From Promethearchaeota archaeon (GTDB taxonomy: Archaea; Asgardarchaeota; Lokiarchaeia; Sigyniarchaeales; SOKP01), in NCBI GenBank assembly GCA_048939995.1, contig JBHLOY010000003.1, forward strand, positions 384,001-448,000: 64,000 bases of DNA, in the 5' to 3' direction. The translations under genes and the position numbers were made by a program. The notes below the pieces were generated by a model that saw only the letters and a list, made by a program, of their open reading frames with translations, was not told the DNA's origin and did no database searches. This document shows positions 4,438 through 25,447 of this stretch, one piece after another. The number at the start of each line of letters is the position of its first letter. Within the stretch, counting starts at the first letter, position 1.

Positions 4438-5649
4438 ATGTTTGATATTAAAGAGCCCAAAATTTATTTTAAAAGTTCAGAATCAATGGAAGAAGTTAAA
4501 GATAATTCAATTCAGTTAATTCTAACTTCTCCTCCTTATGGTAAAATAAAGGATTATGGTGCTAAAATTCAGATTGGGTTCACTGACTCCTTTAAAGAAT
4601 ATTTTCAAAGACTAAGAAATGTATGGACAGAATGTTATCGGATTTTAGAACCGCAATGTAGAATGGTAATTAATGTGGGAGACCAGTATCTAAGAGCCGC
4701 AGAATATGGGAGATACCGAATTTTATCGATTGCTAGTAAAATAATTGAGGATTGCCAAAAAATTGGTTTTGATTATCTTGGGGATATCATATGGCAAAAA
4801 GTCAGTACAACTAATACAACAGGGGGATGTTCTCTAATGGGCTCAATATATTACCCTCGTAATGGATTATTAACATATGACTATGAACATATACTTATCT
4901 TTAAAAAACCTCACGGAAGAGGAAGAAAAGTAGATACTATGATAAAAGAAATGTCCAAAATATCGCTTAGTGAATGGAAAAGATGGTTTGTCGGGCACTG
5001 GAACTTTCCAGGAATTTTACAAAAAGAACATATTGCTATGTTCCCTGAAGAATTACCCCAAAGATTGATACGGATGTTTACATTTATTGGAGATACGGTA
5101 TTAGATCCCTTTGTAGGCTCGGGAACAACATTAAAAATCGCAAAATCTTTATTTCGAAAGAGTGTTGGATATGAAATCAATACTGAGTTCCGCCCTATTA
5201 TCCTGAATAAGGTAAAGGAAGCACATATTGGTTACTTCAAAGATTATCAATATCTTCTATATATATTATTTACTAAATCTCAAGGATCTAGTGATTTTAA
5301 AATTCTCTACCAAGAACAAAAAAAGAAAGGGATTATTGCCCTTCAAAATGAAAGTGATAAAAAAATTGTATTGGATTATCTGTCCTTGGAGAGTTTTAAT
5401 CCAAATAAAGAAGAAATCAAGAGGGAGGTTGGTGCTAAACTGGAAGAAAACACCGTAAGAAATTTTTTAAATAAAAAACCTGACTGGGATAAATTCTCTG
5501 ATTATATAATCATTATTAATTCGACTCAAACAATTTTTCAAAAAATTCAAGATTATTTTAATAAGCATGAGTCTAAAAAATTAATACACCTACTGCAATT
5601 TCGAGAGATACTATCTAAAGAATATGATTTTACTAATCTATTTATTTAG
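4438..5649 (+). CDS. Beta-class amino-DNA methyltransferase (probably m4C) with C-terminal extension
   Basis: Catalytic TSPPY precedes the SAM-binding motif VLDPFVGSGTT; HIAMFPEELP. Confidence 0.9.
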   Translation: MFDIKEPKIYFKSSESMEEVKDNSIQLILTSPPYGKIKDYGAKIQIGFTDSFKEYFQRLRNVWTECYRILEPQCRMVINVGDQYLRAAEYGRYRILSIASKIIEDCQKIGFDYLGDIIWQKVSTTNTTGGCSLMGSIYYPRNGLLTYDYEHILIFKKPHGRGRKVDTMIKEMSKISLSEWKRWFVGHWNFPGILQKEHIAMFPEELPQRLIRMFTFIGDTVLDPFVGSGTTLKIAKSLFRKSVGYEINTEFRPIILNKVKEAHIGYFKDYQYLLYILFTKSQGSSDFKILYQEQKKKGIIALQNESDKKIVLDYLSLESFNPNKEEIKREVGAKLEENTVRNFLNKKPDWDKFSDYIIIINSTQTIFQKIQDYFNKHESKKLIHLLQFREILSKEYDFTNLFI

Positions 5650-5663
5650 AATAGACGATTAAT

Positions 5664-6146
5664 TTGCTTATGAGAACATTAGATATTCCCAACTATGGTA
5701 AAATCACAATTAAAAATATAGTTTTTGATGTTAATGGTACTATTCAATTTAAAGGACGTATTTCTAAAAAATTCATTAAATACATCAAAGATTTAAAAAG
5801 ATTTTATGAAATCTACTTGATATCTGCTGATACACGAGGAAATTTAAGGCATCTTGCTGAAAAATTGCATGTAAATTACCTTAGAATTTTCTCAGTCGAA
5901 ACATCAGAAGCAGAAGCCAAGAATAATGAATTATTAAAATTAGGTAAAGATATAACCGTTGCAATAGGAAATGGAAATAATGATTATCTAATGTTAAAAA
6001 ATGCAATTATTGGAATTGCAATCTTAGGCGAAGAGGGCTCAACAAAGAATGCTATACTAAATAGTGATGTAATTTTGACAAATGTTATTGATGCAATTAA
6101 TTTCTTATTAGATGAAAAAACTATGATTGCAACACTTAGAGCCTAG
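5664..6146 (+). CDS. HAD-family hydrolase (soluble P-type ATPase-like)
   Basis: FDVNGT, SADT and AIGNGNND motifs. Confidence 0.85.
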   Translation: MLMRTLDIPNYGKITIKNIVFDVNGTIQFKGRISKKFIKYIKDLKRFYEIYLISADTRGNLRHLAEKLHVNYLRIFSVETSEAEAKNNELLKLGKDITVAIGNGNNDYLMLKNAIIGIAILGEEGSTKNAILNSDVILTNVIDAINFLLDEKTMIATLRA

Positions 6147-6157
6147 AAAATAGTAAA

Positions 6158-6230
6158 ATCCTCACTCGCACAGAGTATTCATCAAATAACTTTCAAATCT
6201 GACTTTTTTATTTGAATCATTATTTCGGAT
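6158..6230 (-). promoter_or_regulatory. Putative eukaryote-type SECIS element in the 3' UTR of the 6231-7160 gene
   Basis: Minus-strand RNA AUCCGAAAUA-AUGAU-UCAAAUAA-AAAAG-UCAGAUUUGA-AAG-UUAUUUGA-UGAA-UACUCUGUGCGAGUGA-GGAU. It has an AUGA/GA core, a perfect 8-bp helix II, unpaired apical adenines and a mini-helix. Confidence 0.75.
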
Positions 6231-7160
6231 TTACTTTTGAGTACAATCAACTCCTTCTTGCAGATTTATTTTTAAAAATGCTTCCTCTTGTTGATTTCTT
6301 TGCGCTGATTTAATTGACCTATTAACTTGGGCAAGATATTTTATCGCATTAACTTTTCCTTCTTTAATATTCTGAATTAACTCTTCTTTACTTGATCCCC
6401 CAGATATAGTCAATGCTGTTTGAAATGAATGATCAGGAGTTAATGTTTGAAATTTAATTTGTAATGCAGATAAAACTTCTCCCTCTCTTTCATAAATTCT
6501 GTTTGATAAATCAAGTTTTGTATTGTCAATCTTGAAATCCTTAGTTAAACAAGTTTCAAAGTTTGTTGATCGTGAGATCGGTGAGAAACCTGCGTATAAT
6601 CCTGTATTATCATATTGGTATATGATATCATTTTCATCATCATACCCTGAAAAGTCGTTATCAAATCCCTCTAGACCATTAATATCAAAGTCAAATACAA
6701 AATACATCGAAAAGTCAATTAAATCGTAATCTGATATATTTTTTAGTGTAAAAAATGTGTTAATATACGGAACTTTTGGACGATTAAATACGTCGATGTA
6801 CAAACGGATTAGAGAATGTTGTTTCTTAACTTTTAATGTTTCCATTTTTCCCTCTTTCATTAGCTTCATCAAATATTCCTTGATATCAAAATCAAGAGTA
6901 ATTCTATCAATTAGAGTCCCAGTTCGCGTGTTAACCATCTTATATATAGGAGTAGGTTCTATGTTTTTCAAAATAATAGGAATAACACCTACTTTTTTCC
7001 CTGTTAATTTGAAGCTAAACCATGGACCAGCCATTTCCTGCTGTGTCAAGAATAACAAATGCTTCCCTTTATACGTCAATTCTTTGATTGAAAATCCCAT
7101 AAGATACCCTGCTGTATTTCAAGTTGCAAAAATCTCGTTGAAGGCTACCTTTAGAACTAT
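6231..7160 (-). CDS. Uncharacterised protein, putative selenoprotein (309 aa; Sec14 at TGA 7121-7119; ATA start). The ORF track calls only 6231-7100.
   Basis: SD AGGAGGTCAT, 6 nt, then ATA. In-frame (M)VLKVAFNEIFAT-TGA-NTAGYL-MGFSIK continues into the 289-aa ORF, and a SECIS-like hairpin follows the stop. The CDS body is well supported; the extension is inferred. Confidence 0.72.
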
Positions 7161-7261
7161 TTTTCTATGACCTCCTTGACATTTTAATTTTTTTTTTTCA
7201 TAAATTATTTGCTCTAATTTTAATTAATTAAGCCGTTTAAAAAATTTTATAGATTATCTAA

Positions 7262-8236
7262 TTAAATCTTCTCTATAAATCTATAAGCAATATATAAGAA
7301 TGCCTCGTTTACATTCTCACCTGTCTTAGCAGAAGTAAGAATATAATGAAGATCTAACTCTTTTGATACAATTTTAAACTGTTCCTCTGTAATAGCAATT
7401 TGATTCTGTAAATCTGACTTGTTTCCTACTATTACAATTGGGATGTGATCTGGAACTGACTCTTTTATATCATTATGCCAGAATTTTATGCTTTCTAAAT
7501 GACTTCGAGTTCTATCAACTACTATAAATGCCGCATTTGCCCCATCATAGAATCGTTGTCTATAAGGTCGAATTTGACCAACCTGTCCACCGATGTCCCA
7601 GAGTACGAAATTTAATTGGGTATCTTCATCCATAATTATTGACTTTTTCGAGATTTCTACTCCGATTGTGCTTATATAGCTTTCTTTAAAACTATTCTCG
7701 ACAAATCTTTTTATTAGGGAAGTTTTACCAACTTTAAAATCTCCAGTTAGAATAACTTTAGATGTAAATTTTCCTTTCGGTAATTTTCCTTCTCTTCTTT
7801 TAGATAAAACCCTTATAATTTCGGGAATTTCTATTGAAACATTATCATTTCCTTCTAATAACATTTCAATTTTGCTAGCGATGTGTTCAGAGTAAACTTT
7901 TAACTCAACATCAGAAGTGGAAGGATCAGCAATAGTAGTTAGGATTGAATGATGCCCCATTGAACAGTATGCAAATTTTCTGTTTTGCAGTGAGGTAATA
8001 TTAAAAAAATTACTTTGGGTCTTGTATTCACTTTTTATTCGATCAATATATATATCTAAAAATGCTGAAATTGCTCCGATAATGGAGTCAGAATCTTCAT
8101 TTTCCTTCTCCTTGCTTTCAGAAGCTATTATGAAGCCATCTCTGTCACATAATGCAACAGCTGCAGCACCATCCACTTCATCCATATAATTTTTCAATAA
8201 TGAAGTAATACGGCTAATGTTGGGAAGGTGTTCCAT
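7262..8236 (-). CDS. Roadblock/LC7-like domain fused to Rab-like small GTPase
   Basis: N-terminal VDGAAAVALCDRDGFIIAS roadblock pattern; G1 GDFKVGKTS, G2 STIGVE, G3 WDIGGQ, G4 NKSD, G5 TSAK. Confidence 0.92.
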   Translation of the reverse strand: MEHLPNISRITSLLKNYMDEVDGAAAVALCDRDGFIIASESKEKENEDSDSIIGAISAFLDIYIDRIKSEYKTQSNFFNITSLQNRKFAYCSMGHHSILTTIADPSTSDVELKVYSEHIASKIEMLLEGNDNVSIEIPEIIRVLSKRREGKLPKGKFTSKVILTGDFKVGKTSLIKRFVENSFKESYISTIGVEISKKSIIMDEDTQLNFVLWDIGGQVGQIRPYRQRFYDGANAAFIVVDRTRSHLESIKFWHNDIKESVPDHIPIVIVGNKSDLQNQIAITEEQFKIVSKELDLHYILTSAKTGENVNEAFLYIAYRFIEKI

Positions 8237-8830: not shown

Positions 8831-10714
8831 CTAACGATTTTCTTTCAAGAAATCTAAAATATGTAATTTTTTTTCATTGGATATCTTGTAGATCTCGAAG
8901 ACTAAGTGATTAATTTCTGCTTGTAAATCCTTCATTTGTTTATTATTTCCACCTTTAAGGTCTAGTATTTTTTTTACACTTCTTTGAATATTTCTAGCAA
9001 TTAGGACTTCTTTTGGATTTCTAGGCAACAAAATTGGTAAATTTTTAATTTTTTCAATAAGGATTCTTGGGAATAATTCTTTATAAGAACTAAACATTTT
9101 GATAAAATAATAGGATAATAATTGTGAATTTAGTAATCCCAATAAGTAATAGTGATTAAATTCAGGTAAAGAAGATTTAATAATCTTTAAATTATAGAAG
9201 GATTGAGAAGTTAGTGAATATTTATCATATGTAGCACAAATCATATTATTTTGGCTTAATTGCCTTATAACAATCCGATTTTTATAAATTCCTAAGTCTT
9301 TATAGTTTATTCCCTTCTTTTTAATGTTGATGTATTTATAGGCTTTAATAAAGTATCTACTCATTGAAAATAAGAAAGGCTCATAATCATTCTCCGATTC
9401 TTGAGGAATATTATCAACAACAATTTTCTCTATGTTATCCAAATTTAAGTATGAATCGCAATATTTACAGGTTTTGTTTTTTGCTGGTAAGGGGATATAA
9501 TTTTGGCATTTTTTACAATATAAAATTTTTCCATGCTTTCCTATTTCTACACCTCTAGAGATTTTTATTTTGAAGCTGGGACTTTTGTTTATTTCTTTAA
9601 TATTTAGAAATTTAGAAATAAGGTAATCTAAGATATTAACGTCATTGTCATTTAGGTTAAGTAAGAAATTGTAATTCCATTTTTTTAGGACTATTTGTAT
9701 AATTGCTCGATTGAAGTGATTTTTAAGTATGATCTGATTTTCAAGTCTTTTTTTCTTATCCTCCTCTTTTTCAAGAATAATTATAACATTCGATACAACA
9801 GGATCGTTAAAACATTTACCAATATAAAATAATTCTCTAATCTTAGTTTTTGTATATATAAATTTCCTTATCACTCTCCTGTTAGAAAGCACCAAAAGGG
9901 AATCTGGTACAATAAAACCAAGATAACCAGAATTTTTTAACACCCTAATTCCTAATTCAATAAAAACTTGATAATAATCATATTGACCCTTGATTGTTTC
10001 AAAATTTCCTATTTTTATTAAATGTTTATCATTTGAATCAATATTTCTTAGAAATATATAAGGAGGATTTCCTACCACAAAATTAAATCTATTAAATTCA
10101 TTAAATTCTAAAGCATTTATATTATAAATTTTAAATTTAGGAATTTTAAAATCAGGATTATTTTGAATGGCGATCTTGATTAAATTATAGATGGAAAAAT
10201 AAAGATTAATACAGCATAAAATACAAGCTAAAGGATTTATGTCTAAACCATAAACATTCTCTTGAATATCGTTTATAATTAATAGTACCTGATCATAAGA
10301 TAAATCAGATAAGTTTACTAAGCTATAATCTTTAAGATGGAATTCAACTAACCTTTTTATAATCTCAACAAGAAAACTTCCACATCCACAACTTAAATCG
10401 ATTATTTTCATACTTTCCAATTCATTATTGGAAGTATAACCAATACTATTTAAAATGTATTCTACAATATTTATTGGGGTATAAAATTCACCATATTTCT
10501 TCTTTTGACTATTTGGAATCTTCTTTTCGTATAGTTTACCAACTATATCATTTGCATTTAAATTAATATTTTCTTGTACTTCTAAATTATACAAATCGTC
10601 AAGAAGTATATTTATAGTATCTGTATCCTTTGACTCATCTTCTTTTAGATTGTAAATGTTTCTTAATTGTTGGACAATATTGTTCTCTCTAAGATAGTCT
10701 ACAAAATCTTTCAT
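8831..10714 (-). CDS. Gamma-class N6-adenine DNA methyltransferase (Eco57I/TaqI-like) with TaqI_C-type target recognition domain (TRD) and a CxxC/CxxC insert
   Basis: GEFYTP, DLSCGCGSF, VGNPPY, YLLGLLNSQL; CKKC...CKYC. Confidence 0.88.
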   Translation of the reverse strand: MKDFVDYLRENNIVQQLRNIYNLKEDESKDTDTINILLDDLYNLEVQENINLNANDIVGKLYEKKIPNSQKKKYGEFYTPINIVEYILNSIGYTSNNELESMKIIDLSCGCGSFLVEIIKRLVEFHLKDYSLVNLSDLSYDQVLLIINDIQENVYGLDINPLACILCCINLYFSIYNLIKIAIQNNPDFKIPKFKIYNINALEFNEFNRFNFVVGNPPYIFLRNIDSNDKHLIKIGNFETIKGQYDYYQVFIELGIRVLKNSGYLGFIVPDSLLVLSNRRVIRKFIYTKTKIRELFYIGKCFNDPVVSNVIIILEKEEDKKKRLENQIILKNHFNRAIIQIVLKKWNYNFLLNLNDNDVNILDYLISKFLNIKEINKSPSFKIKISRGVEIGKHGKILYCKKCQNYIPLPAKNKTCKYCDSYLNLDNIEKIVVDNIPQESENDYEPFLFSMSRYFIKAYKYINIKKKGINYKDLGIYKNRIVIRQLSQNNMICATYDKYSLTSQSFYNLKIIKSSLPEFNHYYLLGLLNSQLLSYYFIKMFSSYKELFPRILIEKIKNLPILLPRNPKEVLIARNIQRSVKKILDLKGGNNKQMKDLQAEINHLVFEIYKISNEKKLHILDFLKENR

Positions 10715-24694: not shown

Positions 24695-25447
24695 ATGAGC
24701 AACCCATTATTGGACACAAAAACCTCGTTAAAGAAAATGATATCTAACGTCGATTATTTAGAGAGTCTAAATAAAGATTATATCCCCAAATTAAAAGAAT
24801 TACCAACCAATTTACTAGAGGCAATTCAAAAACTTGAAGATGAAAAATCCAAAATATTAAAGATGATTGATAATAATTTAGTTGAAATTGATTCATATAA
24901 AAATAAAATATCTGAAAGTCAGAGAGATGTATCAAAACTCGAGGATTTTAACTCAGAATTGTCTCAACAGCGTCAAAACCTTATTGATAAAATACAAATC
25001 AAGCAAACTGAATTAAAGCAAACAAAAGATAAAATTAGAGAAAAAAATGAAGAATTTTCAAATCGTACGAAAAGATTGAGTGACTTAGAGGATAAAATTA
25101 ATGATTTATCTAGAGATCTAAGTCAGTTGGATGATAACCTAAAGGAGATTGAAAGAGATCTGGAAAATACTTTTCTTAAGAAAGAAAGACAAGTCCAGAA
25201 TTTTGGCTATCGCGTACAGGGAATGAAAATTCTAATTAATAAGAAGTATATTAACTCATCATTATATCAGTTCATAAGAGCATTACAGGTAGGAAGCACA
25301 TTAGATTTGAAGAACATCTTATTAGCAATCGATATGAGGGAAGATCAAGCAATAAAGATTCTTAATAAAATGTTAGACGAAAATGGTCCGATTGAATTCG
25401 ATTCTACAACTGGGACAGTGAAATTAAAACAGGAGGTGGACTTCTGA
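24695..25447 (+). CDS. Long coiled-coil protein with a predicted C-terminal winged helix
   Basis: Heptad-rich ~170 aa, then LDLKNILLAIDMREDQAIKILNKM...IEFDSTTGTVKL. Confidence 0.75.
   Translation: MSNPLLDTKTSLKKMISNVDYLESLNKDYIPKLKELPTNLLEAIQKLEDEKSKILKMIDNNLVEIDSYKNKISESQRDVSKLEDFNSELSQQRQNLIDKIQIKQTELKQTKDKIREKNEEFSNRTKRLSDLEDKINDLSRDLSQLDDNLKEIERDLENTFLKKERQVQNFGYRVQGMKILINKKYINSSLYQFIRALQVGSTLDLKNILLAIDMREDQAIKILNKMLDENGPIEFDSTTGTVKLKQEVDF

Follow-up and report, generated by a model that had tools for sequence, protein, structure and literature searches.

What does the interrupted reading frame near the left end of this DNA encode? On the minus strand of the analysed stretch of 64,000 nucleotides (the window), a frame of 309 codons is interrupted by one TGA and followed at once by a hairpin. 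A preliminary description, made from the sequence, proposed that the TGA specifies selenocysteine (Sec), that translation starts at a non-AUG codon, and that the product is an undescribed selenoprotein. The gene was compared with its relatives in Asgard genomes, and the protein was modelled. The following features of the locus are referred to below.

6231-7160, minus strand: full coding sequence of 309 codons plus TAA, with AUA start, predicted Sec14 and Cys306; encodes a predicted beta-supersandwich with C-terminal helices
7167-7176, minus strand: Shine-Dalgarno (SD) sequence AGGAGGTCAT, followed by 6 nt and then ATA
7158-7160, minus strand: AUA, non-AUG start codon
7101-7160, minus strand: unannotated 20-codon N-terminal extension (strand beta1 and hairpin tip)
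7119-7121, minus strand: in-frame TGA, predicted selenocysteine 14
7098-7100, minus strand: internal ATG (Met21) used by the annotation, start of the truncated 289-aa database protein
6675-6692, minus strand: conserved acidic DFD-x-x-G loop, residues 157-162, common to a domain of large secreted proteins
6243-6245, minus strand: Cys306, candidate partner of Sec14
6156-6232, minus strand: eukaryote-like (type II) SECIS element with helix I, AUGA/GA core, 8-bp helix II, apical adenines, mini-stem and side hairpin
7262-8236, minus strand: gene for a roadblock-Rab small GTPase, upstream of the window gene (Pfam Ras E 9.5e-36, weak roadblock matches)

Start site and coding extension

Re-reading of the minus strand placed the SD sequence (7176-7167), the ATA (from 7160), the TGA (7121-7119) and the ATG (from 7100) exactly where the preliminary description had put them. 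The frame closes with TAA at 6233-6231, and the TGA at codon 14 is its sole other stop. The 6-nt spacing between SD and start was also observed at the site at 25447, to which the arrangement had been likened. Database annotation begins at the internal MGFS in all 120 of the closest homologues. The annotated ATG had been said to lack a good SD, and an SD-like word was indeed found near it in only one of 29 loci of the genus, while GGAGG stands 8-12 nt ahead of codon 1 in 29 of 29. An upstream ATG at 7201 was rejected as the start; it lies one base out of frame over a run of 11 As, and homologues are not conserved there.

Of the 31 genes from the genus, 29 have ATA as codon 1; the other two have ATC and TTG. 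Other genera of the window's family (f1) have near-cognate or GTG starts, and ATG was found in none. The AUA aligns with the ATG of the Cys-containing orthologues described below, which precedes the Sec/Cys position by 13 codons in eight of ten. A conserved AUA start is unusual, because strong-SD open reading frames of this genome mostly begin with ATG, TTG or GTG (81 such starts among the long frames, versus 11 near-cognate candidates). Its purpose is perhaps low expression. A scan for sigma-70 promoters and terminators, with a model ill-suited to archaea, gave matches at chance level.

Exactly one in-frame TGA was present in all 34 same-genus matches, window's genome included, and it was codon 14 in each of the 31 aligned genes. 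No TAA or TAG occurs within the 20 codons of the extension in these 31 genes. Variation at the three codon positions of the extension (0.148/0.051/0.317) was close to that of the annotated frame (0.155/0.097/0.388) and unlike that of the DNA upstream of the AUA (0.359/0.400/0.297). By this pattern of variation the 20-codon extension is coding sequence. Conservation of the 20 upstream residues and TGA or Cys at position 14 of homologues had been named as checks of the proposal; coding-type evolution was observed across the genus, and nearly all matches to the family carry the TGA.

A pseudogene, a nonsense mutation or a sequencing error would account for the stop codon itself, and the 11-A run upstream could hide an indel. 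The same TGA is found, however, at the same codon in about 100 independent assemblies from five lineages, in frames that are otherwise intact, and the DNA ahead of the AUA is unconserved and holds in-frame stops in 23 of 29 loci. With such cross-genome conservation this explanation can be regarded as refuted, its probability being negligible.

The SECIS element

The 5' core of the element, AUGAU, begins at 6220, 10 nt past the stop codon. Helix II is formed by 8 bp between 6215-6208 and 6189-6182, and is followed by apical As (6207-6203) and a mini-stem of 3 bp (6202-6193). The 3' core UGAA occupies 6181-6178, and helix I pairs 6232-6227 with 6161-6156. The core, 8-bp helix II, apical As, third helix and closing helix claimed for the 3' UTR were all located. 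That description did not include a side hairpin at 6176-6164, which is conserved and separates the 3' core from helix I; one like it follows known SECIS elements. Such a short hairpin was seen in nearly all Loki, Thor and Borr SECIS elements inspected, known and new (for example L111, L112, L114 and L157 besides the window), and no mention of it was found in the accessible parts of the descriptions of the lokiSECIS model.

A folding energy of -15.4 kcal/mol (z -2.35) was calculated for the region, and the hairpin has every property of published type that was tested: proximity to the stop, AUGA, a stem of 7-15 bp, apical adenines, GA and an energy below -5 kcal/mol. Among 32 distinct sequences from the genus, helix II was paired in 100% of cells, and four of its pairs were altered on both sides, each in a single sequence. 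The whole structure was 88% paired, compared to 28-56% for slid controls. A covariance model built from only seven known VhuD and Prx SECIS elements ranked the hairpin first in the 64-kb window with a modest score (20.8 bits, E 0.017), and did not list it in a run over the whole genome. The low score fits a type II element, since the type II SECIS of selD likewise escaped the type I model of Mariotti et al. (PMC4989117). No SECIS family was matched in an Rfam scan of the region.

A SECIS confined to TGA-bearing orthologues had also been predicted. A strict descriptor found the element in 55 of 77 TGA genes, in none of 12 Cys genes and in 0.4% of random windows; these are counts and not a statistical test, as related genes are not independent and the 12 Cys genes come from three clades only. 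Most of the TGA genes missed by the strict descriptor look visibly SECIS-like, and one Cys gene from Thorarchaeia retains a degenerate SECIS remnant. The position of the element varies among lineages. In Thorarchaeia it begins at the TGA stop itself, which AUGA overlaps, in Ca. Borrarchaeum it begins 14 nt inside the coding region, and in family f4 it lies about 42 nt inside the coding region and has a longer apex. The stems of these three lineages are unrelated in sequence. The elements of these distant lineages are stronger evidence than covariation within the genus. In one f4 gene (L042) the core letters are deviant, and the 3' end of the f3 gene is masked.

When applied to the 3.75 Mb of the window's genome, a similar descriptor gave 11 matches. 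Six of these follow known selenoprotein genes (four VhuD, one Prx-like and one of MvhA/VhuU type); the remainder are the window gene and four unexplained matches. Two good SECIS elements, at C16:9821 (+) and C11:426328 (-), follow paralogous ubiquitin/MoaD-like frames. The two frames close with a pair of TGA codons (preceded by HAD and VGC), past which both stay open for about 37 codons in similar tails, and they are candidates for further selenoproteins. A SECIS-like element at C36:9833 (+) follows a small frame with one hydrophobic stretch and GGGG-TGA, a candidate small membrane selenoprotein. Another, at C17:215786 (+), follows a 36-codon CxxC/CxxC zinc-ribbon frame that ends in TGA and has no internal TGA, and is possibly an orphan SECIS or belongs to an unrecognised upstream gene.

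Cysteine orthologues and lineages

The genomes are labelled by family: f1 is the window's family, f1 and f2 are two families of Lokiarchaeales, f12 is Thorarchaeia and f21 is Ca. Borrarchaeum. Ten f2 genes, 20-28% identical, encode orthologues with CxxC, among them those of Promethearchaeum syntrophicum (DSAG12_02345), Ca. Lokiarchaeum ossiferum (NEF87_004727) and Ca. Harpocratesius. The second Cys of the motif aligns with the TGA and is residue 14 from the ATG in eight of the ten. In DSAG12_02345 and NEF87_004727, which have no SECIS, Cys14 is exactly 13 codons past the ATG. One gene from Thorarchaeia also has Cys in place of Sec, and one further clade has CxxCxxC. CxxU was found in f3, f4, one f1 genus, Thorarchaeia and Ca. 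Borrarchaeum. The earlier statement that the protein has no CxxU therefore stands for most of f1 and fails for Thorarchaeia, Borrarchaeum and three other Loki groups. Position 14 is the sole invariant Cys/Sec column of the alignment. A quick tree contained five Sec groups and three Cys groups, and its root was uncertain; ancestral Sec with repeated change to Cys would be the simpler reading. About 2 kb downstream of the gene in two genomes of genus g20 (L188 and L190; G177 C10:16300-16554 and G223 C88:266-529), the C-terminal part of the family is matched a second time over a short stretch with internal stops, possibly a decayed duplicate.

These orthologues bear on the possibility that the UGA is a real stop, with a 13-codon leader, re-initiation at Met21, a main product of 289 residues and a purely regulatory role for UGA and hairpin. 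Met21 is widely kept in f1 and chosen by gene callers, and AUA is a weak start. Met21, however, has no SD and is replaced by Phe at position 21 in genus g20, and codons 15-20 show conservation at the protein level. The Cys orthologues, which have no stop, have the homologue of the leader as their strand beta1, and the SECIS tracks the TGA across lineages. Termination at codon 14 is therefore considered highly improbable.

Selenocysteine machinery and distribution

Decoding of UGA as Sec requires its machinery, and the presence of tRNA-Sec, PSTK, SecS and EFsec in the genome had been named as a check. All were found, SecS as SepSecS (E 4.8e-112), together with a SelD gene that has an in-frame TGA. 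PSTK (161 bits) and EFSec (236 bits) scored under the TIGRFAM cut-offs and far above the next matches. The gene for tRNA-Sec adjoins SepSecS on its upstream side (contig C23, about 113474-113628, plus strand, locus L122). It was missed by ARAGORN and by RF01852 because of two introns, and was located by nhmmer searches with the tRNA-Sec of P. syntrophicum and L. ossiferum. One intron lies in the D arm (about 113491-113525), the other in the T loop (about 113584-113613); without them the tRNA forms a 9/4 cloverleaf whose anticodon is UCA. The T-loop intron of tRNA-Sec has been described before (PMC4989117). ARAGORN found only nine intron-less tRNAs in this genome, which suggests that its tRNA genes are heavily interrupted. 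Of the outcomes that had been named as refuting the proposal (homologues that start at MGFS and lack a conserved upstream extension, Trp, Arg or Gly at the position, an unconserved hairpin, missing machinery), none was seen. Sequence features and machinery together indicate that UGA14 is very probably decoded as Sec.

Among 301 Asgard genomes, profile matches were obtained in 63 of 68 genomes of f1, 5 of 7 of f2, 63 of 76 of f12 (where a few are weak domain matches only) and 5 of 5 of f21. SepSecS is present in all four families. No full-length member was found in the searched families without SepSecS, in three small Sec-using families, or with a sensitive profile in one genome each of f5, f13, f18, f24 and f8. 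Part of this co-occurrence is accounted for by shared ancestry. The gene very probably represents a real, widespread and unlisted family of Asgard selenoproteins.

A candidate intron next to the Sec codon in related genomes

In four of 135 genomes with the family, all of one genus, an insertion of 28-31 nt was found one base past the Sec TGA (loci L197, L198, L199 and L200 of genomes G350, G287, G355 and G305; lengths 28, 29, 31 and 31 nt). Each insertion has a central helix of 4 bp (CTTG/CAAG), two bulges of 3 nt and an inner helix. If each bulge is cut behind its second base, an open frame of 306-307 aa is regained, and SD, start codon and SECIS are intact in all four genes. The insertions are candidate bulge-helix-bulge introns of the tRNA type in pre-mRNA, as published for crenarchaeal cbf5 (PMC2738675). 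The site, CU-UGA-A/A, would resemble position 37/38 of the loop of a tRNA with a UGA anticodon. The window's own gene has no intron, and a metagenome pattern search for the intron gave no matches.

Predicted fold and role of Sec14

AlphaFold2 gave a confident model of the window protein (pLDDT 85.9, pTM 0.86) as a beta-sandwich of about 15 strands with C-terminal helices; the Cys orthologue was modelled with pLDDT 88.6 and pTM 0.89. The preliminary description had foreseen a beta-rich body and no thioredoxin fold, and this agrees with the model, for which supersandwich domains were the best structural matches and the thioredoxin fold was not obtained. The fold is predicted to be a stand-alone beta-supersandwich of GH15/GH94 type with linker helices. 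Residue 14 is placed where strand 1 ends or in the turn after it, at the tip of the first beta-hairpin, in a part of the model with low pLDDT (about 54-64 for the N-terminal 20 and the last 9 residues). No signal or membrane segment was found in the protein family, a PDB sequence search with the window protein found nothing, and a search for longer fused forms of the family returned none (weak evidence).

The terminal Cys noted earlier is Cys306, and a Cys within the last eight residues is kept in 119 of 120 close homologues. It is present in all 59 scored genes of Lokiarchaeales, including 46 of 46 from f1. The first Cys of the motif, at -3 from Sec, is absent from 43 of the 46 f1 genes; the window's genus is, from this comparison, one that lost the first Cys and kept Cys306. 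Thorarchaeia and Borrarchaeum have kept the -3 Cys and have no C-terminal Cys, and both residues are present in f2 and f4. Of 79 scored genes, 78 have one or both of these cysteines; the exception, from Thorarchaeia, has neither.

Very probably, ribosomes start at the SD-led AUA, and EFSec and tRNA-Sec decode UGA14 under the control of the type II SECIS just beyond the stop, about 900 nt downstream. The product would be a cytoplasmic selenoprotein of 309 residues whose beta-sandwich binds the substrate. Sec14 would act as the reactive nucleophile of a redox cycle and attack the substrate, and a partner Cys (the one at -3 in CxxU lineages, Cys306 in f1) would then resolve it through a selenenyl-sulfide. 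Given a selenoprotein, such a redox cycle is slightly favoured, because the partner cysteines are complementary among lineages.

Alternatively, Sec14 of the selenoprotein may be a metal ligand, the CxxU/CxxC hairpin forming a knuckle for Zn, Ni or Fe-S together with the C-terminal Cys, a third Cys or a second subunit. The Sec of VhuU, VhuD and HdrA sits at metal or cluster sites, CxxU-G at the predicted hairpin tip resembles a metal knuckle, three-thiol variants are known (CxxC plus C-terminal Cys, and CxxCxxC), and HypD is a divergent neighbour in three loci. The loss of the first Cys in 43 of 46 f1 genes and of the C-terminal Cys in Thorarchaeia and Borrarchaeum, on the other hand, reduces the common minimum to two ligands per chain, and position 14 alone is invariant. 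Metal binding is thus judged a serious but rather unlikely role.

Gene neighbourhood

The preliminary description had placed the gene just downstream of a roadblock-Rab GTPase. This is correct for the window, and in nearly all loci of f1 and most of f2 the GTPase gene (DSAG12_02346 in P. syntrophicum) adjoins it in the same orientation, with a gap of about 20-240 nt. The synteny does not extend to Thorarchaeia, Borrarchaeum, f3, f4 and one f2 locus, where other neighbours were found. The adjacency in f1 and f2 would be expected if the protein were a redox-sensitive partner or effector of the GTPase, but the core function cannot depend on it, since other lineages have different neighbours, and such a role appears improbable. 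A complex prediction for the P. syntrophicum GTPase and Cys orthologue scored 0.00 and is given no weight for or against.

In Ca. Borrarchaeum (L157-L160) the gene lies between a divergent radical SAM gene, NifB-like by motif, and a co-directional GcvH-like gene, next to SepSecS. The substrate is not indicated by the gene neighbourhood. Genes resembling DNA methyltransferases flank the region in the window (4438-5649 and 8831-10714, both plus strand), and the one at 4438-5649 is often found downstream of the gene across the family. Between it and the SECIS, and convergent with the latter, lies a HAD-family gene (5664-6146).

Taken together, a tentative and still rather doubtful picture is that of an ancient family of Asgard selenoenzymes whose spread through Lokiarchaeia and Thorarchaeia roughly equals that of the Sec machinery. 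The family would use a beta-supersandwich of glycosidase type for redox or metal chemistry with selenium. A role in the handling of selenium or sulfur is conceivable (in Borrarchaeum the gene is beside those for SepSecS and a GcvH-like carrier), and output may be tuned by the weak AUA, by Sec supply and, in one clade, by tRNA-type splicing close to the Sec codon.

Comparison with known systems

Homology searches based on known selenoproteins have given seven families in Asgard archaea (Huang et al. 2024, PMC11227280), and a 2026 review counts 119 prokaryotic and 11 archaeal families (PMC13188914). The new family is not among the seven or the 119, and two further Asgard papers list known families only. 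Pfam and NCBIfam gave no match for the window protein and no consistent match for 25-27 family members, and the locus tags of the orthologues were cited nowhere found in a literature search. The claim of an undescribed family of 309-residue selenoproteins agrees with these lists and models. The 11 archaeal and seven Asgard families are nearly all shared with bacteria or methanogens; the new one is Asgard-specific. Its supersandwich fold is not listed for selenoproteins, and the gene is mis-annotated as a truncated hypothetical protein. The family supplies about 100 natural SECIS variants, some inside the coding region. Its function is directly testable, since the Cys orthologues of P. syntrophicum and L. 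ossiferum, both in culture, need only the standard code for expression.

The closest resemblance in recoding is to the lokiSECIS genes, especially type II SPS/selD (PMC4989117, PMC11227280), with which the new family shares the AUGA/GA core, an adenine-rich apex ending in AG, an extra apical stem, a SECIS directly after or overlapping the stop, and the decoding machinery. The protein itself is unrelated to SelD, VhuU/FrhA, HdrA, VhuD, Prx-like, AhpF-N and DsbA-like proteins. In contrast to these genes, those of f1 have a conserved near-cognate start, and homology-seeded surveys missed the family.

In fold, the N-terminal supersandwich and linker helices of GH15 glucoamylase and glucodextranase (1lf6, 1ulv), of GH94 phosphorylases (2cqs, 8rf9) and of GH116 match the prediction (Z 20.7-18.5, rmsd 2.3-3.4 A over 213-237 residues, about 12% identity). 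Unlike these enzymes, the new protein has no catalytic (alpha/alpha)6 barrel in the chain, which ends at residue 309, and carries the Sec/Cys hairpin. An unnamed domain with a DFD/DWD loop in large secreted or surface proteins (S8 peptidase and T9SS-tail proteins, Asgard surface proteins) is similar over profile positions of about 120-270, with a TM of 0.69-0.75 when the 289-aa frame was the query. That domain is part of larger proteins in the matches inspected and the CxxU/C hairpin lies outside the match, whereas the new family stands alone.

The CxxU redox selenoproteins (SELENOW-like, GrdA and AhpD-like; PMC13188914) likewise have CxxU or CxxC with Sec second, and Cys orthologues. The new family differs from them in having no thioredoxin or AhpD fold and in a first Cys that is dispensable where the C-terminal Cys is kept. 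The recoding system is thus a known one; the family, its fold among selenoproteins and its conserved near-cognate start are new relative to the searchable literature.
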